From an uncultured virus (IMG/VR IMGVR_UViG_3300034107_000607) (Duplodnaviria; Heunggongvirae; Uroviricota; Caudoviricetes), in IMG/VR virus record IMGVR_UViG_3300034107_000607: 64,000 nucleotides of DNA. One strand, written 5' to 3'. Under the pieces are notes generated by a model. It had not been told where the DNA came from and searched no databases. It was given only the letters and a program-made list of their open reading frames with translations. Below, piece by piece: positions 35-43,120 of the stretch (position 1 is its first letter; the number at the start of each line of letters is the position of its first letter). Made by a program: the position numbers and the translations under genes.

Positions 35-42
35 TATTTATA
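35..42 (-). promoter_or_regulatory. T4-type late promoter TATAAATA for a gene starting at position 4 (runs off window)
   Basis: tatttata on + strand; downstream AGGTGA Shine-Dalgarno (9-14) and ATG (2-4) on minus strand. Confidence 0.75.
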
Positions 43-63
43 CTTAATGAACGACACTTTTGG

Positions 64-105
64 TTGACAGGTTCTACATGTATGGTATAATTGGATTATC
101 ATCCA
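64..105 (+). promoter_or_regulatory. sigma70-type promoter (TTGACA-N16-TATAAT, extended -10) plus TGGAT-N4-ATCCA palindrome
   Basis: TTGACA 64-69, TG 83-84, TATAAT 86-91, palindrome 92-105; near-identical copy at 23489-23530. Confidence 0.7.
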
Positions 106-121
106 TGAAAATAAAACAGAA

Positions 122-898
122 TCAAATCCGAATAATATCTTCCTCGATACAATTAACTCCGAATTGGATTTCAACAATTCGGACTTCATTGTTCGTCTCA
201 TTTACAAGTTGATGCCATTTGCCAACTGAGATATGAATCTCATCGTGTTTTTCCAATTTTGTAGTTGAAAGAGCGGCGGGATGGTCACCATAATTTACTG
301 TCGCAATACCTTCAGAAACTATCCAATGTTCACTTCTTAGATTGTGTTTCTGAACACTCAATGATTTCCCGGGTTCCACAACTAACTCTTTGACTTTGAG
401 TGATGGTCCATCAGAGTGTAATACTCTATAATAACCCCACTTTCGTTCTGTTTTTGGTGTCTTCCATTCGGTCAGTATTTTACTACTGGAATTCATTTTA
501 TGTGTTCCACCGATACCAAAAACATATTTTAGTCTCTTTGTTTCGGAATCATCACAAACAAGTTCCATTTCAGGTATATTTGCTTTTGTTCTATCACCAC
601 CATTTGCAAAGATAATTTCGGACTCTGGATATGCATTTAAACAATATCTTATTGCTGCTTTTGCAGTCCCATCAGAATCATCAAATATAATAGCAGCGTC
701 TACCATGGATAGATGTTTTATGATTGACATTCTCTCATTCACATCCATAAATGGTTGGCCTTTTTTACGAGATAACCATTCATCGCTATTGACACCGACT
801 ACCAATGTATTACCTAATTTCTTTGCTTCTTCAAAATATGCAATATGTCCACTATGTAGAGGATCGAAACCACCAGTTACAAGAATTACTTTATGCAT
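122..898 (-). CDS. Cytidylyltransferase-like nucleotidyltransferase fused to a mannose-6-phosphate-isomerase-type cupin
   Basis: N-terminal TGGFDPLHSGH (HxGH), FANGGDR; C-terminal RKWGYY...SLSVQKH...RSEHW...EIQFG...EEDIIR cupin. Confidence 0.85.
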   Translation of the reverse strand: MHKVILVTGGFDPLHSGHIAYFEEAKKLGNTLVVGVNSDEWLSRKKGQPFMDVNERMSIIKHLSMVDAAIIFDDSDGTAKAAIRYCLNAYPESEIIFANGGDRTKANIPEMELVCDDSETKRLKYVFGIGGTHKMNSSSKILTEWKTPKTERKWGYYRVLHSDGPSLKVKELVVEPGKSLSVQKHNLRSEHWIVSEGIATVNYGDHPAALSTTKLEKHDEIHISVGKWHQLVNETNNEVRIVEIQFGVNCIEEDIIRI

Positions 899-1635
899 TA
901 ATATATATCTCCATATTTCTTAAAATCAACATGTTTAAATAAACCTTCACCCCATGCAACATTAAAATTCTGTTCTGCCCACCATCTTGAAATTGATGGT
1001 TCAAGAAGATTATCTTGGATAAATGGATCAATAATATCTGGAATAAATTCTGTCTTGAATAAACACGGATTATTGGTCCAATTAGACCAACGCGATGTTG
1101 TAATGTAGTGATATTTATGCTTTCTAATTTGCTCAAATTTTAGATCAGGTTCTTCAATCCAATGAATACAATCAAAGAGATGCGGAGAAATTAAACCAGT
1201 ATTTTCATCGTAATGATTTAATTCATTATCCCTATAAACTTCTGAAAATAAAGGATATCCAGGTGTTCGTCTAGATCTTAGTCTTATGCACTGATAATCT
1301 TCTTCTAAAAGATCTATGGATCCAATTAATCTTTTCTTTGTAGTTTCTTTAGTTTCAATTAATTGCCAATCATTTTCAAGAAATAGAAAATATTCTTCTG
1401 TTGCTTGTTCGGCTAGTATTTGCATTGCTTTACCAATGCCTACATTTGTATCTAAACCAATGAAAGGAATGCCATATTTTTTAGCAAGTGCTTTATCCTC
1501 TTTAGTAACTTCTTGAAATAGAATTGTTATATCTGAAACTAGATTAAAAAGTCCATTCATTATATAAGTTTTTATTGTCTCTTCTAGAACTTCAGGTGAG
1601 TTCCACGAAAGTATTCCTACTGAAATTGGTAACAT
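898..1635 (-). CDS. Glycosyltransferase, GT-A/GT2-like
   Basis: ISVGILSWN start, NVGIG, FLFLENDW, WTNNP; start moved to ATG 1635, just after the upstream stop. Confidence 0.7.
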   Translation of the reverse strand: MLPISVGILSWNSPEVLEETIKTYIMNGLFNLVSDITILFQEVTKEDKALAKKYGIPFIGLDTNVGIGKAMQILAEQATEEYFLFLENDWQLIETKETTKKRLIGSIDLLEEDYQCIRLRSRRTPGYPLFSEVYRDNELNHYDENTGLISPHLFDCIHWIEEPDLKFEQIRKHKYHYITTSRWSNWTNNPCLFKTEFIPDIIDPFIQDNLLEPSISRWWAEQNFNVAWGEGLFKHVDFKKYGDIY

Positions 1636-1636
1636 T

Positions 1637-2422
1637 TTAAAATCCTGTATGTTTTCTTCTGACAAATTCGAGATCATATAGTGAATAACTAATATCTCGT
1701 TCTTCTCCAGCAAAGGGTAGTACATGTGGACATACAGTTCTCCAACCAGGACCCCATTTGCGGGTAAGATATTCTATATTAAGTGCATTAGAAATTTGTA
1801 ATATTTGTGCTAAATTCTCGTCAGATTTTTCAGTTTGTCTTCCATGTTCATAGTATGCTTCGGCATCTCCAGTACCATGTAAATAACCTGATTGTAATCC
1901 TACAATTTTCTTGACACCTTTGTTCACCATTTTCATAATATAATCTGCATCTTCACAATATGCGGGATATGTATTTTCGTCAAATAACCCTAGTTTCTTG
2001 ACTGCTCTTTCGTGTATTGCAAATAAATCCCACGCACCAATTTCAAAATCACCAGGGTTTGGATGTATTGTTCCAATTTCTGAATCATTTATCATGATAT
2101 CATTAAATTCTTTTAATAATCCTGGTTTAAAAGCAACATCATCATTAGCAATTATCCAATATGCTGCATTCATATAACACTTAATAATTAAATTCCAAGC
2201 ACCTGCACATCCTATATTAGCAGGCATATGAACTACTTTTATTTTATCTATATAGCGGTGCTTTAACTTGACTATATTGTTTAATTCTTCATCAATAATA
2301 CCACGTCCATTATTGTTTATAATTACAAAATTTTCCACTGGATAGTCAACACTTAAAAGTAATCTTGAAACCCAGAAACTGCTATTTACAACAGCAGCTC
2401 CTATCACAGGTATCTTATTCAT
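1637..2422 (-). CDS. Glycosyltransferase, GT2-like
   Basis: NIGCAGAWN, IIANDD, GLFDENTYPAYCEDADY; likely start ATG 2422 (MNKIPVIG). Confidence 0.8.
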   Translation of the reverse strand: MNKIPVIGAAVVNSSFWVSRLLLSVDYPVENFVIINNNGRGIIDEELNNIVKLKHRYIDKIKVVHMPANIGCAGAWNLIIKCYMNAAYWIIANDDVAFKPGLLKEFNDIMINDSEIGTIHPNPGDFEIGAWDLFAIHERAVKKLGLFDENTYPAYCEDADYIMKMVNKGVKKIVGLQSGYLHGTGDAEAYYEHGRQTEKSDENLAQILQISNALNIEYLTRKWGPGWRTVCPHVLPFAGEERDISYSLYDLEFVRRKHTGF

Positions 2423-3668
2423 TATAGGCACCAAACATAAAGTTTTCTGCACATTTTGTTTTATCTGAAGTATCAACTAGATGTTTTACTTTTTCATATT
2501 CATCTCTATGTACAAACCAATCTTCATATGGTCTATTTTCATCTGGTGAGATATTTGACACCGCAAGAACATAACCAAATGATTCTAAGAATTGTCTTGC
2601 CTTTTCTCTGACATTACTTTTTGGGTCTGCGTAATGGTCGTGTTCGAACGTAATTACTGAAAACTTGTAAGTTTCAAACGGGATTGTGTAAAGAACTTTC
2701 AGTGATATTTCAGCTGGATCAACATCAATCTGTAAGTAATCTATTTCAGTACCAAAACCGAGTGACTTAAAATAAGTACCATAATTTATTGTTGTTGCAT
2801 CTTTTAATATTGCTGTATGTTTTCTTTCTGCATTATGTTTTGCTATAAATTCTTCACTTATATCAACTGACATTCCAGTCCAGCCAAAATCTTTTTCCAA
2901 TAGATAACTATTATTTCCATATGTAGGATGACCTGATCCAATTTCTACATATGTTCCATTCTTTTTACCATTTAATACAGTAAGAACAAACATATCTTGA
3001 TATGCTTCAGAATAATTCTGTTCTATATCTTCAAGACTTTCAAATTTCCAGCGCAATTTATATAATTTAGATTTAGAGTATGTTGTCAATGATTTGGAAG
3101 CAAATGCATTCATATTTACTAAATTATTCTTAACTGAATTTGCAAATTCATCATTCATGTCCCAATTCATATGAAGATCCAAAAGAATTGATTTTGTTTC
3201 TTCTTGTAAACCATTCCACCAACCCATTACGCCCTTTTGAAATAATAGAGCATATTTACCTGGATAATTTACTGGTACTCTCAATTCTTTATTATTAAAA
3301 TCACAAACTTGAAGTGCTATAGAACACATTGTATATGAGTCTAAGTATCTACCCTCATTTGTATCATTGTATTCATATAGTCTACTTAATATATAATATG
3401 CCTCAGGTCTTTTCGGTAAAATAGTAATTGCCTGTTGAAGCATACCTTTTACAGTAAATCTACGAGTACCTTGTCGCTCAAAGCAATTTGCACCATGCAA
3501 TAGACATTCATATCGCAGAAGAAGATCTTCTGTTCTTTCAGCTGTTCTAATATAATAGGAAACAGCAGATGCAGTCTGACCTATTTCATCATAGTATCTT
3601 GCCATTTTAAAATTAATCTCTGGATCATTTGGATTTAAAGCAAATTGATTAAGTAAATCTTCTATCAT
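2415..3668 (-). CDS. TPR-domain protein fused to FkbM-like methyltransferase
   Basis: N-terminal helical repeats (AITILPKRPEAYY); C-terminal GTYVEIGS, NNSYLLEK.FGW.G, IDYLQIDVD, ITFEHD, EDWFV. Confidence 0.75.
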   Translation of the reverse strand: MIEDLLNQFALNPNDPEINFKMARYYDEIGQTASAVSYYIRTAERTEDLLLRYECLLHGANCFERQGTRRFTVKGMLQQAITILPKRPEAYYILSRLYEYNDTNEGRYLDSYTMCSIALQVCDFNNKELRVPVNYPGKYALLFQKGVMGWWNGLQEETKSILLDLHMNWDMNDEFANSVKNNLVNMNAFASKSLTTYSKSKLYKLRWKFESLEDIEQNYSEAYQDMFVLTVLNGKKNGTYVEIGSGHPTYGNNSYLLEKDFGWTGMSVDISEEFIAKHNAERKHTAILKDATTINYGTYFKSLGFGTEIDYLQIDVDPAEISLKVLYTIPFETYKFSVITFEHDHYADPKSNVREKARQFLESFGYVLAVSNISPDENRPYEDWFVHRDEYEKVKHLVDTSDKTKCAENFMFGAYNE

Positions 3669-4285
3669 ATCAAAACTCTCTTATATAGTTTTCTATTCAA
3701 TACATCGTCAACCATAATAAACTTGTTATTAAGCATTAAATTGTGTATAGGTGAATGATCATAATGATCAGTGTTATCAAAAACAAGAAGCCCTCTAATT
3801 GACATTCTTGGAATAAAGAAATTTGCGGCTAATCTGACTGATTCTATATCATGCTGACCGTCAATATGGACAAAACAATATGTATTCAGCATTTTCTTTT
3901 CTTGATCGTAAACAGGAACACCATCTGTAAATCTTCTATAAAATTCAGAGTCTTCCATATTAAAGAAAAGAATATTAATTCTATTATCAAATGCATATCG
4001 GTATAGTTCTGCAAGTGTCTCATTTTTCATATCATCTGTATAGTCACTTCGATGTGGACCTACTATATCATTGTAAATAATATTTCCATATGGGTCCATG
4101 CAGATATGAACACGTTTATCTTCATTTTCCATAAATGAATCGAGTATTACTTTAGTTCCCCCGCCTCGGCGAAGTCCTACTTCACAGCTTAGTCCCTCAA
4201 CACCTTTCAGTGTCTTTATGTGTTGAGTCATAATTTCATATGTCTCAATAGGGCTATCTATTTGTAAATTTGGATATTGACTCAT
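3665..4285 (-). CDS. Class I SAM-dependent O-methyltransferase (TylF/Methyltransf_24-like)
   Basis: CEVGLRRGGG, FVHIDGQH, LLVFDN. Confidence 0.75.
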   Translation of the reverse strand: MSQYPNLQIDSPIETYEIMTQHIKTLKGVEGLSCEVGLRRGGGTKVILDSFMENEDKRVHICMDPYGNIIYNDIVGPHRSDYTDDMKNETLAELYRYAFDNRINILFFNMEDSEFYRRFTDGVPVYDQEKKMLNTYCFVHIDGQHDIESVRLAANFFIPRMSIRGLLVFDNTDHYDHSPIHNLMLNNKFIMVDDVLNRKLYKRVLI

Positions 4286-5241
4286 ACTAAAAATCTTTCT
4301 TCAAATAATTTCATTACAGATTGCGGAGAAAATTTATCCAATAGATAACTCGTATTAAACGAAGTATTTCTTTCAATATTAAGAAATATGTTATCTAAAT
4401 CTCCTTTGTGTGAATATTTATAACAATGATCTTGTAAAAATAGAAAATGGTTTCTTCCGCCTAATTGGTGATTTGTCTGTAGATATTCATTATCATATGA
4501 GATAATAGGTTTATCTTTTGCCGCAAATTCTAAAACTGAAAGACCGAAGGTCTCACCGTAATCTCTGGCATGTATCATTGCGTCACATGTGTTAATAAAT
4601 TTTGTTTTTTCTTTTAAATCTACTGTTGCATCTAGATATATGACTCTTTGATGCTCTAATTTCTTTTCGGTATTTAAGAATAAAAACCAAATATCTGATC
4701 TTTTATCTAATATCTCTTTAATGCTATCAATTACAAAATCAATATTAAATGTATCAAAACCACCATGACGTCCTATTACCAGTGCATCTTTTGGTATATT
4801 AAGATTATCTCTCAAAGTTTCGGTGGTATCATAAAGATTTAAAATATGTGGTACATAAGGTATGTCATTAAAATGTGATTGCCATTCAGAAACTACAGCA
4901 TATCTTTCACCGTGCATATATTCTCTATGTTTGCAGAATACAGAATGAATTAAATTTTTAGTATTAGAAGAAACTATTCCATCATGATATCCATATTTAA
5001 TAGCATAGAAAGCATCTATTGAATTTTTAGATATGTAAGTTTCTACATCATCAAATGTGTCATATGAAAATACTTCAAAATTATTTTTAAACCTTTGAAT
5101 TGCTTGTGGTTTACTATTTTCATTTCTATAAGTAATTATTGGTTCTATATCTAATAGTTCTCTTGCATAATATGCATAATCAAACATTGCAACAGAAGTG
5201 CCTCTTTCTGTTAATTGATTTTCATGAAAAAGTATTTTCAT
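4282..5241 (-). CDS. Glycosyltransferase, GT-B/GT4-like
   Basis: RGTSVAMFDYA, GRHGG, CDAMIHAR..GETFGLSVLE. Confidence 0.8.
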   Translation of the reverse strand: MKILFHENQLTERGTSVAMFDYAYYARELLDIEPIITYRNENSKPQAIQRFKNNFEVFSYDTFDDVETYISKNSIDAFYAIKYGYHDGIVSSNTKNLIHSVFCKHREYMHGERYAVVSEWQSHFNDIPYVPHILNLYDTTETLRDNLNIPKDALVIGRHGGFDTFNIDFVIDSIKEILDKRSDIWFLFLNTEKKLEHQRVIYLDATVDLKEKTKFINTCDAMIHARDYGETFGLSVLEFAAKDKPIISYDNEYLQTNHQLGGRNHFLFLQDHCYKYSHKGDLDNIFLNIERNTSFNTSYLLDKFSPQSVMKLFEERFLV

Positions 5242-6049
5242 CTGGTAATAGATACTTTCTAATTCTGTTATTTTCTAATATCAAGTTCGGTAAATTGTTT
5301 ATATTATATCTTTTTAATATATGATCTTTTCTTCCGAGTGGATCAAATGAATTTTCTGATGCACTAAAGTTTTCATCTAGAGTATGTTCACCAGCGTGGC
5401 TATAATTTTTAATTTTTGTTTTTAATCTTTCTTGATTTCCCATCCAAGTAAAATGCCAACCAAGTTCTTTTAAATAACCATCTTCTGTTATAAAAATATC
5501 TTGCAATCTATGAAAACCCCAAGCATGATCTTCACGAATTTCTGAAAGTGTATAATGTTTTAATTGTTGTCCAGAAACTAAAAATGGGGTATTCCATTGC
5601 ATCTGTTCTTCATTTTGATTATAAACTCTTAAATCTGCTCTACCACACAAATATGCAAGTGGTGTTCTCAAAATCTCATTTGGGTGATTTTCTTTGATGT
5701 ATTTCATATATTCTATATGTGCCGGATTTAAAATCTCATCACAATCACCAATAAATGCAATGTCTGTTTCTCTAATATATGATGTAGCTGCATCTCTTTG
5801 CATACGCTCACGTACCCAATTATTCGGTTCTTGTGCAAGTGAAGGCAACATAACTGGAACATACCAGATTTTCTCAAGAGAAATATCCATTCTCTTGAGA
5901 GTGTTTAAAAGTGTCATTTGTTTCGGTAAACCGCTATGAGTGTGGTCTGCTTCTGTAATTATGAATTTATCTACTTTATTATATAGTAGTCTTAATCTTA
6001 ATTCTAGAAGTTCTTCCTCATTAAAATAAGAAAAGCAATCAATTATCAT
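5222..6049 (-). CDS. GT17-like (MGAT3-type beta-1,4-GlcNAc transferase) glycosyltransferase
   Basis: IIDCFSYFNE.ELLELRL, VDKFII.EA..THSG.PK, W.RE..QRD, DCDEI, GWHFTW, K...YSH. Confidence 0.8.
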   Translation of the reverse strand: MIIDCFSYFNEEELLELRLRLLYNKVDKFIITEADHTHSGLPKQMTLLNTLKRMDISLEKIWYVPVMLPSLAQEPNNWVRERMQRDAATSYIRETDIAFIGDCDEILNPAHIEYMKYIKENHPNEILRTPLAYLCGRADLRVYNQNEEQMQWNTPFLVSGQQLKHYTLSEIREDHAWGFHRLQDIFITEDGYLKELGWHFTWMGNQERLKTKIKNYSHAGEHTLDENFSASENSFDPLGRKDHILKRYNINNLPNLILENNRIRKYLLPDENTFS

Positions 6050-7085
6050 TTATAAAATCAATTATGTCCTGAATATTAGTTTGCAAAATATATGCAGCAT
6101 TATCTTGAAAACCAAATGTAATTAAAACTTCACCATTATTATGATGACACATTCCAACTGCAAATTCTACGTGTCCATTCATCATTGAAAAATCATTTGT
6201 ATACTTTACAATATTCCAATCTTTATCCCAGACTATAAAGCGATGTCTATAAACTGCATCTTTTCTATCGTGTTCACTTCTAAATAAATCAACTTCATGA
6301 ACAAGAGCTATTCTTTGCCCATCAATACCAAGTGGAATTACTTGTGTTCCACCTCTAAAATCGTTTGGTGCTGGAAAGTATTCACTTAATTTTATTGTAG
6401 TTGATTTAGCATCAATAGGATCTACTTTGACTACCTCTGTTGGATTAGACCATTTTACATACGTATAGTCTTCATCAATAACTGGCATCCAATTCTTTTC
6501 ACAATATGAATTTGGATCTTTTGGCGGTGGTATTCTGACTCTAGAAACTTCAGTCATTTTACCTTCAATGTATTGAAGTTCTGATAACTCCATTCTACCC
6601 TGACCATTTGTAGTTGTATCTCTACGAACACCTGTTGCATAAAGTTTTTCATTCCAAAGTACAAGACGGACATCTTCGAGACCAACAAAATCCCACATTG
6701 GCTCATATGTGTCAAATTTTGATGTATCTATTTTACAGAATCCAGTGATATTAAGATCATTATCCAATTCACAGTAATAATTAGTTGTTCGTAAATGCAT
6801 ATCATTTTCAGGGTGTAAATAAGTAAGTGGCCCCCATTGGTGCTGCAATAGTTTTCGTTCGGAATGATAGAATGTATAATTTACGTGTCGGATATTGACA
6901 ATTAATCTACCATCAGGCAATCTATAAATGGTCGGATTCATTAATCCAGTTCCATTAGTTAGTTCTGATGGGATAATGAGAGGCTTTATCTTGCCACCTC
7001 GTTCAAGTACATATTTGGTAAATGATTCATTATTACCGAACTTATACTTTGATTCTACTTCGTTAAAACCTTTTTTGATTTCCAT
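6039..7085 (-). CDS. Beta-propeller glycoside hydrolase/phosphorylase-like protein
   Basis: MNPTI, GLEDVRL, CEKNWMP, RGGT, VEFAVG, FGFQD; start ATG 7085 has a GAGGTGA SD. Confidence 0.6.
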   Translation of the reverse strand: MEIKKGFNEVESKYKFGNNESFTKYVLERGGKIKPLIIPSELTNGTGLMNPTIYRLPDGRLIVNIRHVNYTFYHSERKLLQHQWGPLTYLHPENDMHLRTTNYYCELDNDLNITGFCKIDTSKFDTYEPMWDFVGLEDVRLVLWNEKLYATGVRRDTTTNGQGRMELSELQYIEGKMTEVSRVRIPPPKDPNSYCEKNWMPVIDEDYTYVKWSNPTEVVKVDPIDAKSTTIKLSEYFPAPNDFRGGTQVIPLGIDGQRIALVHEVDLFRSEHDRKDAVYRHRFIVWDKDWNIVKYTNDFSMMNGHVEFAVGMCHHNNGEVLITFGFQDNAAYILQTNIQDIIDFINDN

Positions 7086-7120
7086 AGTATAGTCACCTCT
7101 ATTCAATTATATTGTGATAT

Positions 7121-7825
7121 TTATAACCCAAACAGGTGCCAAGAATTTTGATGAACTGCTACATATTCTGGACCTTTAAAATCTTCATCTATCAGAGTAT
7201 AGTCATGAAACTCTATGCTGTCTTGTTTTAACTTACCCAATTTAAATCCTAGTGGTTCCAAGAAATTGTAACTATCTATTAACATCCATTTGGTAAGCAC
7301 ACATATGAAACTATATTCAAATTGAATAATTCTAACCTTACCTTCTTTGAGCGTCTTTTCAAACCCTTTAAATACCTTTCCTTCTGCACCTTCGGTATCT
7401 ATTTTTAGATAATCTATCATTTCAAGTCTACGACTATCAACATAATCGTCACCTGTAAATGCAAGACCATTTATCGGAATACTATCATCTAATCTTAAAT
7501 CTGTAACTATTGTACTGAGTGAATCATATTCGGTTTTATGCTTCATTGGCACAGGGCCAGATTTATCTAGTAAACCGAAACTATTCGGAATCATTTTATT
7601 GTCTAGTTCAATATTTCTAAGCATTTTACTGTAAGTATCAGGAACTATTTCAAACATGTGTATATCAGCATTTGGTTGAAATGATCGAGTCATTCTTGTC
7701 CATTCACCGATATTAGATCCAACATCAAATATTGTTTTAAACTGCCCATTAAATCTATTTTGGATCCAAGTTTCACCATGCTGTTGAAACTCACTCATTG
7801 CATATTCACGATTGTATTCACTCAT
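7121..7825 (-). CDS. FkbM-family methyltransferase
   Basis: IFDVGSNIGEW, IDYLKIDTEGAE, IIQFEY. Confidence 0.88.
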   Translation of the reverse strand: MSEYNREYAMSEFQQHGETWIQNRFNGQFKTIFDVGSNIGEWTRMTRSFQPNADIHMFEIVPDTYSKMLRNIELDNKMIPNSFGLLDKSGPVPMKHKTEYDSLSTIVTDLRLDDSIPINGLAFTGDDYVDSRRLEMIDYLKIDTEGAEGKVFKGFEKTLKEGKVRIIQFEYSFICVLTKWMLIDSYNFLEPLGFKLGKLKQDSIEFHDYTLIDEDFKGPEYVAVHQNSWHLFGL

Positions 7826-11193: not shown

Positions 11194-11227
11194 AATATAT
11201 CCTCATCACGTAAAAGTTAATCAATGG

Positions 11228-11631: not shown

Positions 11632-11633
11632 TA

Positions 11634-31936: not shown

Positions 31937-31953
31937 ATTACTTAATCCTTATA

Positions 31954-34610: not shown

Positions 34611-34611
34611 A

Positions 34612-34866
34612 TTATAATCCTAAAAATGCTATTGTTCTTGCAAATTCATCAGTACCTGCTCCGCCACCGCCGCCAATGGAACCCCAACCAGCATTACTAT
34701 AACCTTCAAACGAATTTGTTGTAGTATTGTAGCGCAACTGACCTAGAACACCAGTTGGTTGCTGACCAGTTGTTCCCGCAGGAACTTTGACTGCTGTAGT
34801 TCCAGCTAAATCTATGTAAGCAGTTTGATCATTGATGATCGTAGTGCCTTGAATCTTGATTGCCAT
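34612..34866 (-). CDS. Small virion/fibre adaptor protein
   Basis: MAIKIQGTTII, VP.GTT.Q.P...G.LRYNTT...FEGY...W. Confidence 0.65.
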   Translation of the reverse strand: MAIKIQGTTIINDQTAYIDLAGTTAVKVPAGTTGQQPTGVLGQLRYNTTTNSFEGYSNAGWGSIGGGGGAGTDEFARTIAFLGL

Positions 34867-34902
34867 CTTCGCGCCCCTTTCATGAGTACTCGGCTATACA
34901 AG

Positions 34903-34910
34903 TATTTATA
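34903..34910 (-). promoter_or_regulatory. T4-type late promoter
   Basis: TATAAATA directly after the upstream stop, upstream of 34866. Confidence 0.8.
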
Positions 34911-35351
34911 TTACTGAGGCGGTGTCGGCCATACAATATTGTCTGGGAAACCAGCTTGTGATGTCACATCTCTTAATTCTTGACGATATAGTGACCAAGC
35001 TTCTTTATTGATCGAAGCAGGTGCATCTGGAAGTTGTGTATAGTCACAAAGAAGAAGCAGTTGATTACGGATTGCTCTCATTTGTCCTGAGCGCTCTTCC
35101 AATGTAGGTTCATCAGAATAATCAATTGCACCGAATGCAGCTGCAACATCTATAGTTTGAACTACTGCATCTTTTTCTATCCAATATGCAACAGGTGAAT
35201 ATTGGACTATTACAGCTTCTAAAGTTTCACCTTCATATGGAATTCTTGTATATACATTCATATCACCATGAGTTGGTGATGTATATTTAACTTCCATAGT
35301 TCTTCCATTTGTATCAACATTTAATACTTTATATGTATATTTGATTTGCAT
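34911..35351 (-). CDS. Tail fibre assembly chaperone-like protein
   Basis: R..RN.LL..CDYTQLPD.P...W..YRQELRDV..Q.GFP..I.WP.PP. Confidence 0.8.
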   Translation of the reverse strand: MQIKYTYKVLNVDTNGRTMEVKYTSPTHGDMNVYTRIPYEGETLEAVIVQYSPVAYWIEKDAVVQTIDVAAAFGAIDYSDEPTLEERSGQMRAIRNQLLLLCDYTQLPDAPASINKEAWSLYRQELRDVTSQAGFPDNIVWPTPPQ

Positions 35352-35363: not shown

Positions 35364-36404
35364 TTAAACTGTTTCTGTCCCGCCTGCTACAGTTCCTAAT
35401 GTAGAAAAAGTAACATAATTTGACCCTTTAACTGCAAGACCTGCAGCTCCACCAGCGCCGCCTGCAGATCCATTAACAATAGTCGCGGAACCAAATGCCC
35501 CGCCTGCAGAATTTCCACTTGTTCCGGCACTGCCCAAAGCCCCACCGCTACCACCATTTGGTGGATTTGACCAGATCAACCCGCCGCTACCACCGGATCC
35601 ATCATTAAATGCATAGTTACCACCATCACCACCACTTCCTCCTGCTGTGGCAGTGCCACTAGAACCATTTGTCGGATATGTTATTGCAGGAATAATAGGA
35701 GATTGCCATGTTGTTGTGCCGCGAGTACCTCCAGTACCTCCAGTGCCGCCTGCACCACCTCCACCGCCAGGACCCCCGGCCCATAACTTTTTAGCATTTG
35801 CAGTCATAACAGCATATACACCAGCACTGCCGCCGCCGCCGCCGCCACCACCAGCTATAGTACCATTATTAATAACAGTCACCGCAGTGCTAGCATATAA
35901 TGCAGCACCTCCAGAACCTCCAGCAGTACCTCGTAATGATGTTGAATTTGTTGCTGGAGAACCACCACCATTTCCACCAGGACCGCCTTTTCCTGCTATA
36001 GTACCGTTATTAACAATACGAATACCTTTAGGAAATGAGCCAGAAACTGTAAGGGCATAAAAACCTGCACCTGAACTGGTTGTTGATACCGTAATACCCG
36101 AATCTATTGTTAATACAACTCTTTTAGCTTGATCCCATCCAAGTCCTATTAAATATGTTCTAACATTAACATCATTTGCATTAGTAGAAATTGATGCTCT
36201 AAATGGTGCATCTTTTCCGTGTCCATCCGAAAATGATATTTGTGATAAATTTGCATATGGTGCTGCCGCAAGATTTGGCGTATCTCCTGCCAGCATATCC
36301 CGAACAATATTTTCATTCATAGTCAGAGTTGTCGTGTCAGTTCTTGCCAACTCGACATTCATTTGATTTGTTGATATTCCGTTAGGAAATAGTGGAAGGG
36401 TCAT
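35364..36404 (-). CDS. gp38-like glycine-rich adhesin
   Basis: IVNNGTIAGKGG.GG and INNGTIAGGGGGGG motifs; lies directly after an S74-chaperoned fibre, as in the T2-type gp37/gp38 pair. Confidence 0.7.
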   Translation of the reverse strand: MTLPLFPNGISTNQMNVELARTDTTTLTMNENIVRDMLAGDTPNLAAAPYANLSQISFSDGHGKDAPFRASISTNANDVNVRTYLIGLGWDQAKRVVLTIDSGITVSTTSSGAGFYALTVSGSFPKGIRIVNNGTIAGKGGPGGNGGGSPATNSTSLRGTAGGSGGAALYASTAVTVINNGTIAGGGGGGGGSAGVYAVMTANAKKLWAGGPGGGGGAGGTGGTGGTRGTTTWQSPIIPAITYPTNGSSGTATAGGSGGDGGNYAFNDGSGGSGGLIWSNPPNGGSGGALGSAGTSGNSAGGAFGSATIVNGSAGGAGGAAGLAVKGSNYVTFSTLGTVAGGTETV

Positions 36405-36407: not shown

Positions 36408-39400
36408 TTATTTCCCTTCCAGACTTTCAATTTTTACAGATAGTTCTTTAATTGCTTCAATTAGAAGTGGAACTATTTTTTCATATCTTACAGTCAGATA
36501 TCTTTCATCAATTGGAGCTGGAGCAACAATTTCTGGTAAAATTTCTTTCACTTTCTGAGCAGAAATACCGACTTCTCTTATTGGTTTGTAACCCATTCTC
36601 TGAGCAATTTCATTTGCTTCATAATAGAAACCATCAAGTGTTTTAACTTTTTCAAGTGCATTTTCAATTAACCCAAGTCTAGTTTTAAGTCTATCATCGG
36701 AATAATAAGCAGTAATATTATTAGTTGCTCTAATTTCACCTGCAGTTCCAGATGCGGTAGTTCCTACCCCAAGACTGTTAAATCGTACGTTACTCGAAGT
36801 ATTTACTGTTTGGTCGGCAGTAACACCTGTAGTACCTTGAATACCTTGGATACCAAAGATCCCTTGAATACCTTGTGACCCAACTCCTGTTATACCTTGC
36901 AGACCTAAAGTACCCTGAATACCTTGGCGACCTTGAATACCTTGGATACCTTGGATACCCTGTGAACCGTTAGCACCAACACCTGAAAGACCTTGACCAC
37001 CAATAGTTCCTTGTACACCTTGGCGACCTTGTAGACCTTGGAGACCTTGGTTGAAACTTACACCTGAAAGACCTTGAATACCTTGACCACCAATAGTTCC
37101 TTGGACACCTTGGCGACCTTGTAGACCTTGGTTACCAATAACACCTCCGCCGCCCTGAACACCCTGAATACCTTGGAGACCTTGATTAAAGCTTTGACCA
37201 GAAGTACCTTGAAGTCCTTGGAAACCTTGAGCAACCGCATTACCAGATTGTCCTTGAACACCTTGTAAGCCTTGGTTGAAACTTTGCCCTGAAGTACCTT
37301 GAAGTCCCTGGAAACCTTGGGCTACAGCAGATCCAGACTGTCCTTGTATACCTTGATAACCTTGTGCAACAGCAGAGCCTGAAGTACCTTGAAGTCCCTG
37401 GAAACCTTGAGCAACAGCAGATCCAGATTGGCCTTGGACACCTTGGCGACCTTGAATACCTTGTCCTGCAAACAAACCATCGGTACCTTGAAGTCCCTGG
37501 AAACCTTGTAATACTGCGGAACCAGATTGCCCTTGAACACCTTGAACACCTTGGTTAAAACTTTGACCCGATATTCCCTGGAAACCTTGACGGCCTTGTG
37601 TACCCTGAACACCTTGTAGGCCTTGATTGAAACTTTGACCGGATATACCTTGAACACCCTGGATACCTTGAGCGGCAAATGACCCAGGAACACCCTGTAT
37701 ACCTTGTCGACCTTGAAGCCCCTGTAGGCCTTGGCCCACAAGACCTTGTATACCTTGGACACCTTGTCTACCTTGAGACCCAGTTGAACCTTGAATTCCT
37801 TGGACACCTTGTAGACCTTGAGTACCTTGAGGTCCCTGAATACCTTGTATGCCTTGACCAACAAGTCCCTGAATGCCTTGAACACCTTGGCGCCCCTGAA
37901 TACCTTGAGCTCCAACGAATTGACCTACTTCAGACCAATTTACACCATCATAAACCCATAATTTACCGGTACTGGTTTCAATTACAGCATTACCTGAAAC
38001 TGCACTTGGAAACGCAATTTTAAGTGCCGCATCACTTGCTACACTAATACTTCCAATAACAGTAAGCGCAGGTCCGAATGTACCTTGAACACCTTGAAGT
38101 CCCTGAATACCTTGGCCAACAAGACCTTGTAAACCTTGAACACCCTGAGTTCCTTGAGTTCCTTGGACACCTTGAGCGCCTCTTAGACCTTGAACACCTA
38201 TTGGCCCTATAATACCTTGACGGCCTTGAATACCTTGATTACCAAATAGACCTTGAATACCTTGGACACCTTGAGAACCTACTGCTCCGACAAATCCTGA
38301 AATACCTTGAATACCTTGATTACCAAGAATGCCTTGAATACCTTGAACACCCTGAGAGCCTTGGATACCTTGTTGACCGATTTGACCTTGAACACCTTGA
38401 GTTCCTTGCGGGCCCTGAGTTCCTTGCACACCTTGTTGACCTTGAGGTCCTTGTAAACCTTGAATACCCTGTCCTACTTGACCTTGTATACCTTGAGTAC
38501 CTTGAGTACCTTGAATACCTTGGCTTCCAATAATACCTTGAGCGCCTTGAATACCTTGCGGCCCCTGGATGCCTTGATTACCTTGAATACCTTGGCTTCC
38601 AATAATACCTTGAGTGCCTTGAATACCTTGAGTGCCTTGAATACCTTGAGCGCCAATAGATCCTTGTATACCCTGAATACCTTGAGATCCTTGAATACCC
38701 TGTGGTCCCTGAATACCTTGAATACCAATAGAACCTTGAATACCCTGAATACCTTGAATACCAAATAGACCTTGAATACCTTGGTTACCCTGAATACCTT
38801 GGTTACCTTGAATACCAAATAGACCTTGAATACCTTGTCGGCCTTGAGTTCCTTGAATACCCTGTGGTCCCTGAATACCTTGAGTTCCTATCAAACCTTG
38901 TATACCTTGGACACCCTGTTCACCCTGAGTGCCTTGAATACCTTGGAAACCAATAGAGCCTTGAATACCTTGGGAACCAATAGAACCTTGAATACCCTGA
39001 GTACCCTGTGTCCCTTGGATACCTTGTGGACCCTGAATACCTTGAATGCCAATAGAACCTTGAATACCCTGAGGTCCTTGGATACCTTGTGGTCCCTGGA
39101 TACCTTGAGTTCCTTGAGTTCCTTGCGGCCCCTGGATACCTTGATTACCTTGAATACCTTGGCTTCCAATAATACCTTGAATTCCTGATCCTGTTATACC
39201 CTGTGTACCTTGGGCGCCTTGTGGACCTTGAATTTGTCCAACATTGTTCCAATTAACACCATCATAAACCCAGAGATTGCCAGATGCTTGATCTATCACA
39301 CCATTGCCCGCAACTGCAGTGTTAAATGCAGTATTTAAAACATCTTGTTCATCATCTGGGGGTGTGTAATTTGAAACATCAAGAACAGATCCGATAATTG

Positions 39401-40472
39401 TTAATGATGGCCCATAAGTTCCTTGAAGACCTTGGCGACCTTGAGTACCTTGAACACCTTGAGTACCCTGTGGCCCCTGAATACCTTGAGATCCCTGAAT
39501 TCCTTGATATCCTTGGATACCTTGAACACCTTGAGTACCCTGTGGCCCCTGAATACCCTGTGTCCCCTGTGTACCTTGAATACCTTGAGTTCCTATCGAA
39601 CCTTGTATACCTTGAAGTCCTTGCTGACCGACAAGTCCCTGAATACCCTGTGGCCCTTGAGTACCTTGAATACCCTGTGTACCTTGAACACCTTGAGTTC
39701 CCTGGTTCCCCTGAGTTCCTTGAACACCTTGAGTTCCCTGGTTCCCCTGAGTTCCTTGTATTCCTTGTGGTCCTATAGTACCCTGTATTCCTTGAATACC
39801 TTGTTCACCCTGAGTTCCTTGAATACCCTGTTCACCTTGTGTTCCCTGAGTTCCTTGAATACCTTGAGTTCCTTGAATGCCTTGAGCACCCTGTATACCT
39901 TGAATTCCTATTGAACCTTGTATACCTTGAAGTCCTTGCTGCCCGACAAGACCCTGAATACCTTGCTCACCAGTGGAACCTTGAATACCTTGCTGACCCT
40001 GAATACCCTGATTACCTTGAACACCCTGTGATCCCTGGAGACCCTGAGGTCCTATTATACCTTGAGTTCCCTGAATACCTTGTTGGCCCTGAATTCCTTG
40101 AGGGCCCTGAATTCCTTGTGTACCTTGTTCGCCCTGAATGCCTTGAGGTCCCTGGATACCTTGAATACCTTGACCTACCTGGCCTTGAATACCTTGTATA
40201 CCTTGGTAACCTTGTAGACCCTGTAATCCTTGACCAGGTATACCCTGCAAGCCTTGAAATCCCTGCAAACCTTGGATACCCTGAAGTCCTTGTAAACCTT
40301 GGAGACCTTCATTTAATCTAATCCACAGAGTTCCATTTGAATAGTAAACAAATGTATCATCACCATAAACAATAGCACCCTCAAAGTTTTGAGGGTCTAG
40401 GTTAATTGGTGTTTCTAACTTAGATCCTTGTCCAAGAAGAGAAGTTTTACCGCGGATTGTCCTAAAAGCCAT
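36408..40472 (-). CDS. Giant collagen-like tail fibre (G-X-Q) with C-terminal S74 chaperone
   Basis: Hundreds of GIQ/GTQ/GPQ/GVQ triplets, two globular nodes, GEIRATNNITAYYSDDRLK...VG.SAQ...[15 protein letters not shown]. Confidence 0.85.
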   Translation of the reverse strand: MAFRTIRGKTSLLGQGSKLETPINLDPQNFEGAIVYGDDTFVYYSNGTLWIRLNEGLQGLQGLQGIQGLQGFQGLQGIPGQGLQGLQGYQGIQGIQGQVGQGIQGIQGPQGIQGEQGTQGIQGPQGIQGQQGIQGTQGIIGPQGLQGSQGVQGNQGIQGQQGIQGSTGEQGIQGLVGQQGLQGIQGSIGIQGIQGAQGIQGTQGIQGTQGTQGEQGIQGTQGEQGIQGIQGTIGPQGIQGTQGNQGTQGVQGTQGNQGTQGVQGTQGIQGTQGPQGIQGLVGQQGLQGIQGSIGTQGIQGTQGTQGIQGPQGTQGVQGIQGYQGIQGSQGIQGPQGTQGVQGTQGRQGLQGTYGPSLTIIGSVLDVSNYTPPDDEQDVLNTAFNTAVAGNGVIDQASGNLWVYDGVNWNNVGQIQGPQGAQGTQGITGSGIQGIIGSQGIQGNQGIQGPQGTQGTQGIQGPQGIQGPQGIQGSIGIQGIQGPQGIQGTQGTQGIQGSIGSQGIQGSIGFQGIQGTQGEQGVQGIQGLIGTQGIQGPQGIQGTQGRQGIQGLFGIQGNQGIQGNQGIQGLFGIQGIQGIQGSIGIQGIQGPQGIQGSQGIQGIQGSIGAQGIQGTQGIQGTQGIIGSQGIQGNQGIQGPQGIQGAQGIIGSQGIQGTQGTQGIQGQVGQGIQGLQGPQGQQGVQGTQGPQGTQGVQGQIGQQGIQGSQGVQGIQGILGNQGIQGISGFVGAVGSQGVQGIQGLFGNQGIQGRQGIIGPIGVQGLRGAQGVQGTQGTQGVQGLQGLVGQGIQGLQGVQGTFGPALTVIGSISVASDAALKIAFPSAVSGNAVIETSTGKLWVYDGVNWSEVGQFVGAQGIQGRQGVQGIQGLVGQGIQGIQGPQGTQGLQGVQGIQGSTGSQGRQGVQGIQGLVGQGLQGLQGRQGIQGVPGSFAAQGIQGVQGISGQSFNQGLQGVQGTQGRQGFQGISGQSFNQGVQGVQGQSGSAVLQGFQGLQGTDGLFAGQGIQGRQGVQGQSGSAVAQGFQGLQGTSGSAVAQGYQGIQGQSGSAVAQGFQGLQGTSGQSFNQGLQGVQGQSGNAVAQGFQGLQGTSGQSFNQGLQGIQGVQGGGGVIGNQGLQGRQGVQGTIGGQGIQGLSGVSFNQGLQGLQGRQGVQGTIGGQGLSGVGANGSQGIQGIQGIQGRQGIQGTLGLQGITGVGSQGIQGIFGIQGIQGTTGVTADQTVNTSSNVRFNSLGVGTTASGTAGEIRATNNITAYYSDDRLKTRLGLIENALEKVKTLDGFYYEANEIAQRMGYKPIREVGISAQKVKEILPEIVAPAPIDERYLTVRYEKIVPLLIEAIKELSVKIESLEGK

Positions 40473-40918
40473 TATACGGTCTCCACTATTCCGTCTACAT
40501 CATCCTGTTCAGCTTGACCCACTGTATAAGATATTGTCACATTAATGCCACTAGCTGCAGAACTAGTAATTTCTAGTTTATCACCACTAGCAATAAATTG
40601 ACCATTTAACGGAAGTGGCAAAATATCAAATGCTGGTATTGGTAATTGTGTAGCAATTAAATAGTTAGTAGTATCGGTATTTCTATAAATTCGTATATCT
40701 ACATCGATGCTTGCCGCACTTATATTAGTAATAAGTAAAGGGCTGATAATTTCAGCAACACCTGGTACAGTAATGGTTCCCCCGCCGAATGTTTCTTCGG
40801 GTATTTCATATTCTGGCACTTCTATTAAAGTAGTCCAACCAGCACTAGTTATAGATTTAGAAACTCCGACGGGTTTTGCATCAGGAGCCTGACTTGTTAT
40901 AAGTTTTGTTATTGTCAT
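40472..40918 (-). CDS. Hypothetical virion protein, paralog of 20695-21159
   Basis: Shared motifs and same position upstream of a collagen-like fibre. Confidence 0.65.
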   Translation of the reverse strand: MTITKLITSQAPDAKPVGVSKSITSAGWTTLIEVPEYEIPEETFGGGTITVPGVAEIISPLLITNISAASIDVDIRIYRNTDTTNYLIATQLPIPAFDILPLPLNGQFIASGDKLEITSSAASGINVTISYTVGQAEQDDVDGIVETV

Positions 40919-43092
40919 GTAATTGATACCCTACTATTTGCTGCTCTTCTTGCTAATCTTCTAACTGATGATGTGAAAGGTCTTCCTTCCAGACGACCGG
41001 TCCTACCGTTAATTTTTAAACCTCCAGCAAAATACTGGTTGTTTAATTCATCTGCACCTGACCATCTTACTCGACCACTATCTTCCTTTAATACTGATCC
41101 GCTAGCAGGCAATGGCTTTCCGACTCTTCTGAAGTTAAGTGGCAGCGCATTTTTATTTACACCTGCGCCCGCCAAGTTAAACTGATGTGCCAAACTTTCA
41201 ATAAGACTGCCAAATAATAGTTTAGATGGATTCAACAAAGTTTTAATAATAATGTTATTAATTAATGTAGAGATCATATCCTGCTGCGCTGTATCTGCAG
41301 TCAATGTTAACATATATATTTTCATTCTTTCGTATGCAAATATAAATGAATCTAGCAATGTTGTATCATTAGGACCAGTATTGGTCCAAGTAGATCCATC
41401 GGAAACATAAACATCACCTTTATATATATTTATAGGTTCTCCATCCGGATCATAAACAATATATGCTGAATTTGGTTCTACTGTATTTGCATCTGGAAGA
41501 CCGCCTTCACCGCTAATAGCGGAAACACTTCCAATATATATTGCATCTTCATCCGATGGATTAAATACTTGAAATACGTGATCTGCCTTATAGTCAAAGA
41601 ATGAAGCTGCAAAGTTTCTAGAACTTGTTTGGCCTGCTGAAATTAAATCATAATAAATTGATTGAATAAAACTGTTTGCATCTCGTCTAGTAAGTGCTTC
41701 ATCTATTTCATATCCAAGACCTACAACATAGTCGCTGTATATTCGTTCCCACATATCTTCTATAATATCGTCACGTGCATTATCTATTGTTTCTGCTGCT
41801 GTATTTGCAAAAATTAAATCATTCTTTTCTACACCAGTTAATTCATATGGTTCTACTACATAGGTAAAACCTTTGGCCCGCATTGATATATCACCGAATT
41901 GTGTGCCGGAGTTATTGAGTGTGACTTGACCACCATTAAGTGCATAGAAAGCACATCTTTGGAAAATTGTAATAGAACCGATACCGTTAATGCCAGCACC
42001 ATTCTTTGCAACATATCCCATCCCATTTGGCGATCTTGGTGTAGCACCAAAAGCTAACATATATGGGAAAATTGTATCATAATCTAAAACCGCGCGATCT
42101 GCAAGAAGAACACCGCCACCTCTACCAACAAGAGGATTAGCATTAACTGGATCTAACGGCGCCGCAATAGCTCTTTCTGTATAGTTACTTACCTGACTGC
42201 AATCTTTTATATATGGCGATCTAAGTATTGTAGCACCTGGTCTGAATGCAACAGCAAATCCTTTTGTAGGATCATCAAAATCATCTACTCTCATATTTCT
42301 GAAACCGAAACCTTGAATATAGCATCCAGATCCGACCAAGAAACAATTTTCTTCGATTGGATCATGTAAGTACCAATCTACACCCGGTCCATTAGTTGGA
42401 TCATATAGATGTATATTTGTTGCATATTGACCATTTGTTGACACGACTGAACATTTATCTGGAAGTGAAAGATTCCCTTCCGTATAGTAATTACCTGGCA
42501 TTACTGAAATTGAAATTGGATAATTTATTGAATTCATAAAAGCAAATGCTTGTTCTAGTGTTTGATATGGTTTCATATAACTTCCATTGCCGCCGGCGTC
42601 AGCATCAGCAGCTACATACACTTTGTTTACTTTCTTTAACTGCTCTGCAATTTCATCATTTAAATCAGAGAATTTAATTGTAACAGTAGATCCATTTTGT
42701 GCTTCACGGATTATAAATTCATCATTATCATCTAACGGTGCCGCGTATTCATTTAAATTTCCAAATATTGGTTGATTTAATGCTGAATTATTTATAGTAC
42801 TTGTATTGATTGTAGCACTGGAAATAGAACCACCAGTAATTGCTGGATTGCTAATAGTAGGACTTGCAATGGAAGTAGTATTAATTACACTATTTGACAT
42901 TGTGACATTGTTTATAGTGCCACCAGTTATATTGATATTAGTAAAAGGTTCTTTTTGTAAGGCTTTTGCTAGTTCAGATCTTGTGATATTTTTTGTACCA
43001 TTGTCACCTTGCACAAGATTTACCATAACAAAAAGGTCGCTGGATGCAGTTTCATCTGCAAGTAATGGACCTAATTGAGAGATTTTTGACAT
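40915..43092 (-). CDS. Virion structural protein with probable beta-helix domain, paralog of 21162-22787
   Basis: MSKISQL N-terminus, I.GGTI repeats, VYVA...GNGS..KPY.T, NPLVGRG.GV. Confidence 0.7.
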   Translation of the reverse strand: MSKISQLGPLLADETASSDLFVMVNLVQGDNGTKNITRSELAKALQKEPFTNINITGGTINNVTMSNSVINTTSIASPTISNPAITGGSISSATINTSTINNSALNQPIFGNLNEYAAPLDDNDEFIIREAQNGSTVTIKFSDLNDEIAEQLKKVNKVYVAADADAGGNGSYMKPYQTLEQAFAFMNSINYPISISVMPGNYYTEGNLSLPDKCSVVSTNGQYATNIHLYDPTNGPGVDWYLHDPIEENCFLVGSGCYIQGFGFRNMRVDDFDDPTKGFAVAFRPGATILRSPYIKDCSQVSNYTERAIAAPLDPVNANPLVGRGGGVLLADRAVLDYDTIFPYMLAFGATPRSPNGMGYVAKNGAGINGIGSITIFQRCAFYALNGGQVTLNNSGTQFGDISMRAKGFTYVVEPYELTGVEKNDLIFANTAAETIDNARDDIIEDMWERIYSDYVVGLGYEIDEALTRRDANSFIQSIYYDLISAGQTSSRNFAASFFDYKADHVFQVFNPSDEDAIYIGSVSAISGEGGLPDANTVEPNSAYIVYDPDGEPINIYKGDVYVSDGSTWTNTGPNDTTLLDSFIFAYERMKIYMLTLTADTAQQDMISTLINNIIIKTLLNPSKLLFGSLIESLAHQFNLAGAGVNKNALPLNFRRVGKPLPASGSVLKEDSGRVRWSGADELNNQYFAGGLKINGRTGRLEGRPFTSSVRRLARRAANSRVSIT

Positions 43093-43112
43093 TTAACTAT
43101 ACCTTTTTTAGT

Positions 43113-43120
43113 TATTTATA
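43113..43120 (-). promoter_or_regulatory. T4-type late promoter
   Basis: TATAAATA upstream of an AAGGT SD and the 43092 start. Confidence 0.8.

Follow-up and report, generated by a model that had tools for sequence, protein, structure and literature searches.

Three late-promoter enzyme blocks in a fibre island of an uncultured T4-like phage follow the repeat types of their candidate virion substrates

The DNA analysed here (the window) is a stretch of 64,000 nucleotides from an uncultured Caudoviricetes virus (IMG/VR IMGVR_UViG_3300034107_000607). It covers a structural region of an aquatic T4-like myophage, in which every gene of interest lies on the minus strand. We consider it probable that an island in this region encodes two anchored collagen-like fibres with propeller tips, and that the enzyme blocks among them modify virion proteins in a substrate-specific manner. 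The three blocks appear to be independently mobile and late-expressed, their enzymes are soluble, and each block most likely modifies one Ser/Thr-rich class of virion repeat.

The island consists of two modules, A and B, each ending in an enzyme operon. Operon A is block 1 (23521..29800), which comprises nine genes behind a late promoter at 29800: a methyltransferase, a protein with TPRs and a GT9-fold glycosyltransferase (GT) domain (TPR-GT9, 27885-29219), a sulfotransferase, a GT2, a 187-amino-acid (aa) protein with an HxE..H pattern (25804-26367), an HldE-II-like protein, an HldE-I-like kinase, a cupin and an HldD-like epimerase. Operon B holds block 2 (7121..11235), in which a late promoter at 11235 precedes a 1123-aa GT4-GT2-GT2-GT2 protein and an FkbM methyltransferase, and block 3 (122..7125), in which a late promoter at 7118-7125 precedes eight genes: a GH130-fold propeller (6039-7085), a GT17, a GT4, a methyltransferase, a TPR-FkbM protein (2415-3668), two GT2 proteins and a nucleotidyltransferase-cupin fusion. 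Block 1 is linked to RCC1 propellers, block 2 to G[FY]TGS collagen and block 3 to GTQ collagen.

Co-occurrence of enzyme families with repeat types

Fibre type and enzyme set, which the preliminary description of this DNA had expected to vary together among relatives, do so strongly, in counts anchored on enzymes, on collagens and on whole islands. The enzyme-anchored scans took the best 80 of 500+, 125 and 602+ relatives, with loci clustered at 90% and up to 10 kb of flank on each side. G[FY]TGS collagen is present at 21 of the 44 clusters of GT4 loci, Gln-type only at 2 and RCC1 at 2. All 47 clusters of GH130-like loci have TPR-FkbM, 21 have Gln-type collagen, and the only one with G[FY]TGS collagen is the window's own phage. 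Of the 41 clusters of TPR-GT9 loci, 34 have RCC1 genes within 10 kb, 36 the methyltransferase, 33 the sulfotransferase and 29 the 187-aa protein, and at least 20 collagen triplets are found in only 3. The earlier proposal that operon A is dedicated to fibre A finds no support in these counts or in locus L180, a natural reshuffle. There, operon A genes 51-86% identical to those of the window stand behind a single RCC1 gene and tip genes of the module B type, followed by GT4-GT2 and gp13, and the GH130-like block is absent.

Motif scans anchored on the collagens are independent of enzyme ancestry; counted among the matches listed (80 loci per motif with full flanks), they agree with this pattern. 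In clusters of at least 10 kb, which give our main counts, the GT4 gene lies beside 17/40 GFTGS and 0/45 GTQ loci, and the GH130-like gene beside 0/40 and 14/45, respectively; at any length, the corresponding counts are 18/115 versus 0/128 for GT4 and 0/115 versus 15/128 for GH130-like. Because most loci have no partner within the flank, these counts are lower bounds.

The same pairings hold across whole islands. The mapped set comprises the window and 26 related contigs (27 regions), of which 10 were omitted as incomplete; each of the remaining 17 is readable from the first head gene to gp13. The GT4-GT2x3 gene is present in all 5 islands with G[FY]TGS collagen and in none of the 12 others, and TPR-GT9 in all 3 with RCC1 propellers and in none of the 14 others (17/17 agree in both cases). 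The GH130-like gene occurs in 12 of 13 islands with GTQ collagen and in 0 of 4 without it (16/17 agree), and two collagen-free islands carry none of the three enzymes. Enzyme and collagen genes are about 0.1 to 9 kb apart, and in 4 of 22 cases the GT4 gene has the opposite orientation to the collagen; the partner is nearly always upstream. In a gp13 tree of 34 rows (those of the 69 gp13 clusters with typed collagen), collagen type switches 7 times. Among independent pairs from this tree, GT4 is concordant in about 2.9 of 3 and never opposite, and GH130-like is concordant in 1.9 of 3.

Properties of the enzyme blocks

Operon B is best regarded as two blocks, because the late promoter at 7125 splits its genes where the associations change. 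Homologs of the FkbM gene upstream of this promoter are found in 8 GT4 clusters versus 1 GH130-like cluster. Downstream of it, the GT2 gene at 1637-2476 has homologs in 1 GT4 versus 30 GH130-like clusters, GT17 in 1 versus 10, and the GT4 gene at 4282-5241 in 1 versus 5. Among relatives, only 5 of 45 clusters have the late promoter sequence TATAAATA no more than 150 nt from the GH130-like gene (background 1.4%), and a late promoter at this place is therefore not universal. Of the proposal that each appendage has its own glycan pathway in a fibre-plus-operon cassette, the agreement of enzyme sets with repeat types survives; the unit does not, because operon A tracks RCC1 and operon B is split, its second block tracking the fibre A type. 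The two operons do have 9 (A) and 10 (B) genes, each with an HxGH nucleotidyltransferase and a cupin, as previously described; the nucleotidyltransferases are 37% identical over 70 aa, and the cupin is free in operon A and fused in operon B.

In a structural model of the 444-aa TPR-GT9 protein (pLDDT 93.6), N-terminal TPRs precede a GT-B domain, and the modelled catalytic domain is a GT9-type GT-B fold. Its matches are 3tov (Z 15.9, root mean square deviation [rmsd] 3.2, 236 aligned), WaaF (1psw, Z 15.7), the protein heptosyltransferase TibC (4rap, Z 14.8, rmsd 3.2, 242 aligned) and 2h1f (Z 13.5), and SPY/OGT head the whole-chain Foldseek list at low TM. At the sequence level, Pfam PF01075 gives weak matches in 4 of 39 family members (best E 0.012) and none in the window protein. 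The hidden Markov model of the TibC/Aah family is absent from the 25 NCBIfam families matched by the 39 members at E 0.1. A homolog search with the TPR-GT9 profile returned 791 proteins; the 120 listed include no informative name. A predicted complex of TPR-GT9 with an RCC1 propeller scored 0.00, which gave no answer and was used neither way.

The best NCBIfam matches in operon A are to HldE kinase (134 of 345 bits), HldE adenylyltransferase (113 of 181.5) and HldD epimerase (208 of 274.6), all under cut-off, and no GmhA isomerase or GmhB phosphatase domain was found among the nine genes. The ADP-heptose pathway predicted from these genes is partial, and its GmhA and GmhB steps would need the host or the cupin. 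In the 187-aa protein, which has DUF6445-like neighbours and is possibly an oxygenase, HxE and His residues are conserved; a PDB sequence search with its profile gave nothing useful.

The GH130-like protein (348 aa) is modelled as a five-bladed propeller (pLDDT 89). Its top Foldseek matches, 4udg, 9erg and 6q4z (E 3e-9 to 2e-8, TM 0.48-0.56, 11-14% identity), and its best fold matches in general are GH130 mannoside phosphorylases/synthases and Leishmania mannosyltransferases. The family has invariant pocket residues (E137-D138, R140, K197-N198-W199, R244 and H263). Pfam PF04041 matches 19 of 48 members (best E 4.9e-5), and the window protein scores 13.9 bits against a cut-off of 26. Searching PDB sequences with the GH130-like profile gave nothing useful, two further enzyme profiles yielded only TPR matches below E 0.1, and the 1123-aa GT yielded three weak GT2 matches (best GalT1, 5hea, E 7.6e-6). 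None of the 19 enzymes of the three blocks has a membrane segment, and no 19-residue hydropathy window exceeds 1.9.

The only relative of the GT4 protein found in GTDB genomes is on a contig of a Cellvibrionaceae metagenome-assembled genome (L739, CAZIWB010000010.1). This contig is probably phage DNA, because the gene has G[FY]TGS collagen genes on both sides and a gp13-like gene nearby.

Organization of the island

The island occupies a recognizable position. A DUF4815/VrlC-type gene (44634-49994) bounds it on one side, T4-type baseplate genes occupy 44-63 kb of the window, and the late promoter of the neck gene gp13 lies at 35..42, with gp13 starting at the window's left edge. Locus L335, identical in the GH130-like gene, runs on past that edge into a gp13-type gene. 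The nearest record, G001, brought no extension at this end. With VrlC on one side, gp13 on the other and fibre and GT genes between, the island is a variable host recognition cluster (HRC) of the T4-like kind, in position as in content. The gp6 protein is 37% identical to those of Sinorhizobium phages phiM7/phiN3/phiM12 and 35% to that of Caulobacter phage Cr30.

The gene order is repeated in the two modules, and every feature listed in the preliminary description is present at its place. Copies of TATAAATA start at 43120, 29800, 23465, 22859, 11235 and 42, the numbers given earlier being their low ends. Two further copies, at 34910 and 7125, had been missed. Seven of the eight are 28-44 nt before an ATG, and the copy at 22859 is 72 nt before one. 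Late promoters ahead of all blocks support the description of the operons as late-expressed.

Module A opens with the T4-type late promoter at 43113..43120, 28 nt ahead of the ATG of head protein A (40915..43092, 725 aa), a probable fibre anchor with a beta-helix-like core and relatives in 246 IMG/VR stretches. Head protein B of module B (541 aa) and its promoter (22852-22859) lie at 21162..22859. The heads (40915-43092 and 21162-22787) are paralogs as claimed, with 39% identity over 359 aa (E 1e-74), a C-terminal match (E 3e-14) and both of the motifs quoted for them. The Atlas neighbours of head protein B are DUF1565, Mtd_N and pectate-lyase-like clusters, which we take as a lead only. Behind the heads follow a 148-aa protein (40472..40918) and its distant 154-aa paralog (20695..21159), whose kinship also stands: they share 19% identity (E 3e-4 pairwise, missed at E 0.01) and invariant columns in a 16-sequence alignment. 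A strictly parallel order has to be qualified for two extra genes between the modules (22860-23443; 112-115 aa and 77 aa; phrog_1084 and phrog_3304), which with the late promoter at 23458-23465 head module B (22860..23465); the first is kept in 24 of 27 mapped regions. Of 50 related records, many of them fragmentary, 10 have a pair of head paralogs, and the module duplication is therefore a family trait. In mapped relatives, the fibre behind either head paralog may be Gln-type, Thr-type, mixed or without collagen.

Both giant Gly-X-Y fibres match Collagen PF01391 and end in a Peptidase_S74 chaperone, and their repeat chemistries differ, again as first described. Fibre A (36408..40472, 1354 aa) is of the G-x-Q type, with Gln at Y in 225 of 283 triplets and with 35 GTQ triplets. 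Fibre B (15353..20689, 1778 aa) is of the GFT-GSK-GDI type, with Thr at Y in 155 of 365 triplets, and its 1095 collagen residues include 162 Thr and a single Pro. Tip proteins and a tail assembly chaperone are present in both modules, as expected, but the tip sets are unrelated. Those of module A are a Gly-rich gp38-like adhesin (35364..36404; phrog_2056, E 2e-7) and, beyond the chaperone (34911..35351, PF16778), a unit with its own late promoter (34903-34910), an 84-aa protein and the RCC1 tip genes (29805..34910). Pfam identifies here three RCC1-like propellers (33285-34610, 31954-33288 and 29805-31292), which are rich in Ser and Thr (19-24%), and a DUF4376 protein (31298-31936). The tip genes of module B (11251..15356) encode two short GFTGS proteins, a 219-aa protein, LamG-like and Gly-rich proteins and a separate tail assembly chaperone.

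Several further features lie in or near related islands. In the window, VrlC and module A are separated by a fibre gene (43218-44459) that is the third to bear S74 and has no collagen, and a gp5-like hub gene with a GH19/lysozyme-like domain is followed by a separate peptidase M15 gene (56344-59954). No Rfam match was found in 1-45000, and no tRNAs. The cultured cyanophage S-SRM01 (L115, NC_070963.1; 17415-40159) has a head-like gene, fibres, three RCC1 genes, a TPR-GT9 homolog, a 2-oxoglutarate (2OG) oxygenase, a sulfotransferase and an epimerase in one block. In G002, a TctA-family tripartite tricarboxylate transporter gene (L116:12309-13640, E 1.5e-69) lies amid the module A enzyme genes, which include a sugar dehydratase, a GT25, a radical SAM protein and a 2OG oxygenase. 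In G031 (L152:11299-15427, L153:951-2836), six paralogous tip proteins of 300-370 aa, with no convincing Pfam match, take the place of RCC1, accompanied by a sulfotransferase and three 2OG-Fe(II) oxygenases. The collagen-free island of G017 (L148:9808-17196) contains eleven opposite-strand genes, including radical SAM/SPASM and QueC-like genes. Fibre islands also hold a tryptophan-halogenase-family gene (L156:7591-9078, G033) and an NUBPL/ParA Fe-S scaffold-like gene (L175:14372-15238, G028). At L337:1-3643, proteins with another Ser/Thr-rich repeat, a possible alternative acceptor, are followed by GH130-like, TPR-FkbM and GT4 genes. A blastn comparison of L258 with L131/L132 found no overlap.

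Divergent promoters at the operon ends

The regulatory element reported at the end of both operons is indeed found at both, but by nature it is a back-to-back promoter pair, formed by the late promoter of the next unit and an antisense sigma70-type promoter. The sigma70 promoters lie on the plus strand at 23489..23516 (TTGACA-16-TATAAT with TG), antisense into operon A, and at 64..91, antisense into block 3. Both match the consensus at 12/12 positions and have the TG, and they are the only perfect TTGACA-N16-18-TATAAT sites in the window (expected 0.155 per shuffled window). The pair can be aligned at ten operon ends from six sources, selected from a scan of relatives; the same scan found no pair at several ends, e.g., both of G002 and module A of G031. 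Reading the element as a terminator was rejected: 0 terminators were found in 22700-24400, and the three hairpin rows in 1-1500 are at 158-195, within the last gene. Open reading frames on the plus strand after the antisense promoters are short only (up to 72 aa).

Two readings of these promoters are near even. Early antisense transcription may keep the enzymes off until late infection, or the promoters may be R-loop origins of the kind known from T4 oriF/oriG, in which a pre-late promoter is combined with an A+T-rich element; early synthesis in T4 starts mostly from late-gene regions (PMC3016281). For the oriF/oriG reading, the window offers a predicted promoter of sigma70 type, not MotA type. 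In marine relatives (L157, L160, L163, L164, L165, L167, L168, L169, L171, L172 and L174; G033-G047), near-perfect sigma70 promoters lie antisense within large fibre genes, which recalls T4 ori(34); these sites fit the origin reading.

Proposed modification of virion proteins

From the observed gene content, promoters, folds, solubility and co-occurrence, we infer the following acceptors, donors, chemistry, purpose and virion location. Modification would take place in the cytoplasm, late, during assembly. The GT4-GT2x3 protein and FkbM of block 2 would place a methyl-capped O-glycan on the G-[FY]-T-G-S collagen of fibre B and the short tips. The GH130-fold enzyme, TPR-FkbM and companion GTs of block 3 would make a methylated, probably mannose-containing glycan on the G-T-Q collagen of fibre A, on which they would act from 30 kb away, despite their place in operon B. 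The TPR-GT9-fold enzyme of block 1, fed by the partial ADP-heptose pathway, would transfer heptose, or a sugar like it, to the RCC1 propellers, which would also undergo sulfation, methylation and perhaps hydroxylation. The expected products are O-glycosylated Thr/Ser in each repeat class, with glycans capped by methylation or sulfation. The S74 domains, whose family has an established role in fibre trimerisation, would then trimerise the fibres, and the head and 150-aa proteins would anchor them. Likely purposes are to stabilise the proline-poor triple helices and to tune adhesion or protease resistance.

A more far-reaching reading, which as a whole we regard as doubtful, is a modular protein-glycosylation code in aquatic T4-like phages. 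Under such a code, each collagen triplet grammar and the RCC1 repeat would recruit its own transferase family, giving three glycans per virion. Sugar on threonine would replace hydroxyproline as helix stabiliser; in vent-worm collagen, glycosylated threonine can reportedly substitute for hydroxyproline. The GH130-fold enzyme would be synthetic and act on a protein-linked acceptor, and the early antisense promoter would silence the enzymes until assembly.

Weighing of alternative explanations

Substrate-specific modification of virion proteins is favored by the counts from enzymes, collagens and whole islands, by the late promoters preceding all three blocks, by the solubility of the enzymes and, by analogy, by the TPR and GT-B layout shared with FlmG. 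Several observations weigh against it. Decoration is a prediction from co-occurrence and folds, in which glycan, acceptor and transcript are all predicted. The two best fold matches of the modelled TPR-GT9 domain are a GT9 of unstated acceptor and a lipopolysaccharide (LPS) heptosyltransferase, tied or nearly tied with TibC, and HldD and the HldE-I kinase are present in only 16/41 and 12/41 TPR-GT9 clusters. Among the matches listed, a partner is missing from the flank of 23/40 GFTGS and 31/45 GTQ loci. Of the 17 islands, six belong to similar marine types. Island G009 has 16 GTQG yet no GH130-like gene. GT4-GT2 genes occur without collagen in the available DNA of L237, L202 and L337, in L237 among replication-type genes, and the GT4 gene of L219 adjoins mostly Gln-type collagen (2 G[FY]TGS). 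In some marine relatives, a sense sigma70 promoter stands just ahead of the GH130-like gene (L156:6570, L160:17099, L162:14452, L121:11843), and early expression may apply there. Genes that lie side by side tend to move together, and linkage can thus give rise to co-occurrence. The Fisher tests on the collagen-anchored counts from clusters of at least 10 kb (p 2.8e-7 and 5e-5) ignore kinship, and the well-supported independent pairs number only 3 (median sign-test p 0.25 for GT4 and 0.5 for GH130-like), too few for significance, so phylogenetic independence is unproven.

Linkage is at the centre of a quite improbable alternative, in which the pairings are hitch-hiking of neighbours and the enzymes act elsewhere, e.g., on phage DNA or small metabolites. 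The few independent contrasts, the nearly constant upstream, same-strand position of the partner and the existence of DNA-hypermodifying phage GTs (bioRxiv 10.1101/2023.12.21.572611) are consistent with it, but the pairings survive variable spacing, inversions and re-shuffling, the collagen-free islands G014, G017 and G008 are without the enzymes, and late timing and a place among structural genes fit DNA modification poorly. The model of the preliminary description, in which each fibre is served by its whole downstream operon and both are exchanged as one cassette of about 20 kb, is very unlikely. The parallel order and the recurrent paired heads are real, GT4-GT2x3 does pair with fibre B of its own module, and G002 and G006 differ in module A tips and operons with gp13 at least 95% identical. 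However, operon A follows RCC1 and not collagen, both in the enzyme-anchored counts and in L180; 8 of the 10 operon B genes stand behind a separate promoter; and their homologs belong to GH130-like rather than GT4 loci (30 versus 1 for the GT2 at 1637-2476), and those loci have Gln-type collagen.

The enzymes could instead alter the surface of the host (LPS core or O-chain) so as to prevent co-infection, which we think unlikely; on this explanation, they lie among fibre genes because both are host-specific. HldE-/HldD-like genes and GT9 folds are LPS-core machinery, and LPS core transferases need no membrane helix. Host-surface remodelling is also how pelagimyophage islands (PMC7029224) and cyanophage GT clusters (PMC12801897) are interpreted in print. 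It is opposed by the late promoters ahead of all three blocks, by TPR domains suggestive of protein partners, and by the segregation of enzyme families with virion repeat chemistry in both search directions. Gtr-type serotype conversion uses a membrane flippase and a membrane transferase, and no flippase or Gtr-type membrane partner was found among the 19 enzymes.

Significance

Large aquatic phages carry GT clusters among their commonest auxiliary genes, and the GT-rich islands of T4-like aquatic phages are already in print as host-surface genes, a role assigned without test in the published accounts (PMC7029224, PMC12801897). A pairing of enzyme family with fibre repeat in phages was not found in the literature searched, which included few subscription journals and no supplements; that of PMC7029224 could bear on novelty. 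The window contributes an island that unites all three pairings, in a crossed layout where predicted target and gene neighbourhood can be told apart, together with the antisense promoter pair. It is useful because the three blocks and their three candidate substrates occur together, and it yields a crossed prediction: block 3 would modify fibre A and not the neighbouring fibre B, and block 1 the propellers. If virion decoration is true, this gene class needs reinterpretation, and phage fibres join BclA and mimivirus proteins as glycosylated collagens. Three soluble enzyme sets with acceptors readable from sequence would also be attractive for glyco-engineering and for collagen materials free of proline.

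Comparison with known systems

The HRC of pelagimyophages and cyanomyophages is an island of variable content that stretches from VrlC to the neck genes and carries genes for fibres, collagen and ConA domains, along with many GTs (Zaragoza-Solas et al. 2020, PMC7029224). The window island has the same position and content; in its available text, that paper explains the GTs by modification of the host O-chain and gives no pairing of enzyme family with fibre repeat. Phage-encoded virion glycosylation has precedent (PMC12363180). In mycobacteriophages, phage GTs modify the phage's own structural proteins, namely capsid and tail tube (Freeman et al. 2023, via PMC12363180 and PMC12619734), whereas the predicted targets here are fibre collagens and propellers of a T4-like phage, which would be served by three blocks.

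The modelled TPR-GT9 enzyme shares with FlmG and OGT/SPINDLY the N-terminal TPRs, the GT-B domain and a cytoplasmic location. In Caulobacter FlmG, the TPRs bind the protein acceptor (PMC7591256). The likeness to FlmG is one of layout and fold; the window's catalytic domain is nearest GT9 heptosyltransferases, and heptose-pathway genes are adjacent. FlmG-class enzymes take flagellin as acceptor and a nonulosonic acid as donor. The TibC/Aah autotransporter heptosyltransferases have an iron-binding cysteine motif and form a dodecamer. They have in common with TPR-GT9 a GT9-like fold and, as candidate acceptor, a Ser/Thr-rich repeat adhesin; the window protein has an added TPR domain, and its acceptor would be a beta-propeller.

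Thr-rich Gly-X-Y repeats of BclA (Bacillus/Clostridioides) and of mimivirus collagen are glycosylated by dedicated enzymes, and the glycan is thought to aid triple-helix hydration (PMC8968730). The window shares such repeats and candidate dedicated enzymes, but it has almost no proline, two repeat chemistries in one phage and other enzyme families. Finally, the GH130-like protein has a predicted five-bladed propeller in common with GH130 mannoside phosphorylases/synthases and with Leishmania GDP-Man mannosyltransferase/phosphorylases, and as in GH130 its pocket has conserved residues, both acidic and basic; it differs from GH130 in its low identity (11-14%, under the Pfam cut-off) and in the TPR-methyltransferase that accompanies it in 47/47 clusters.

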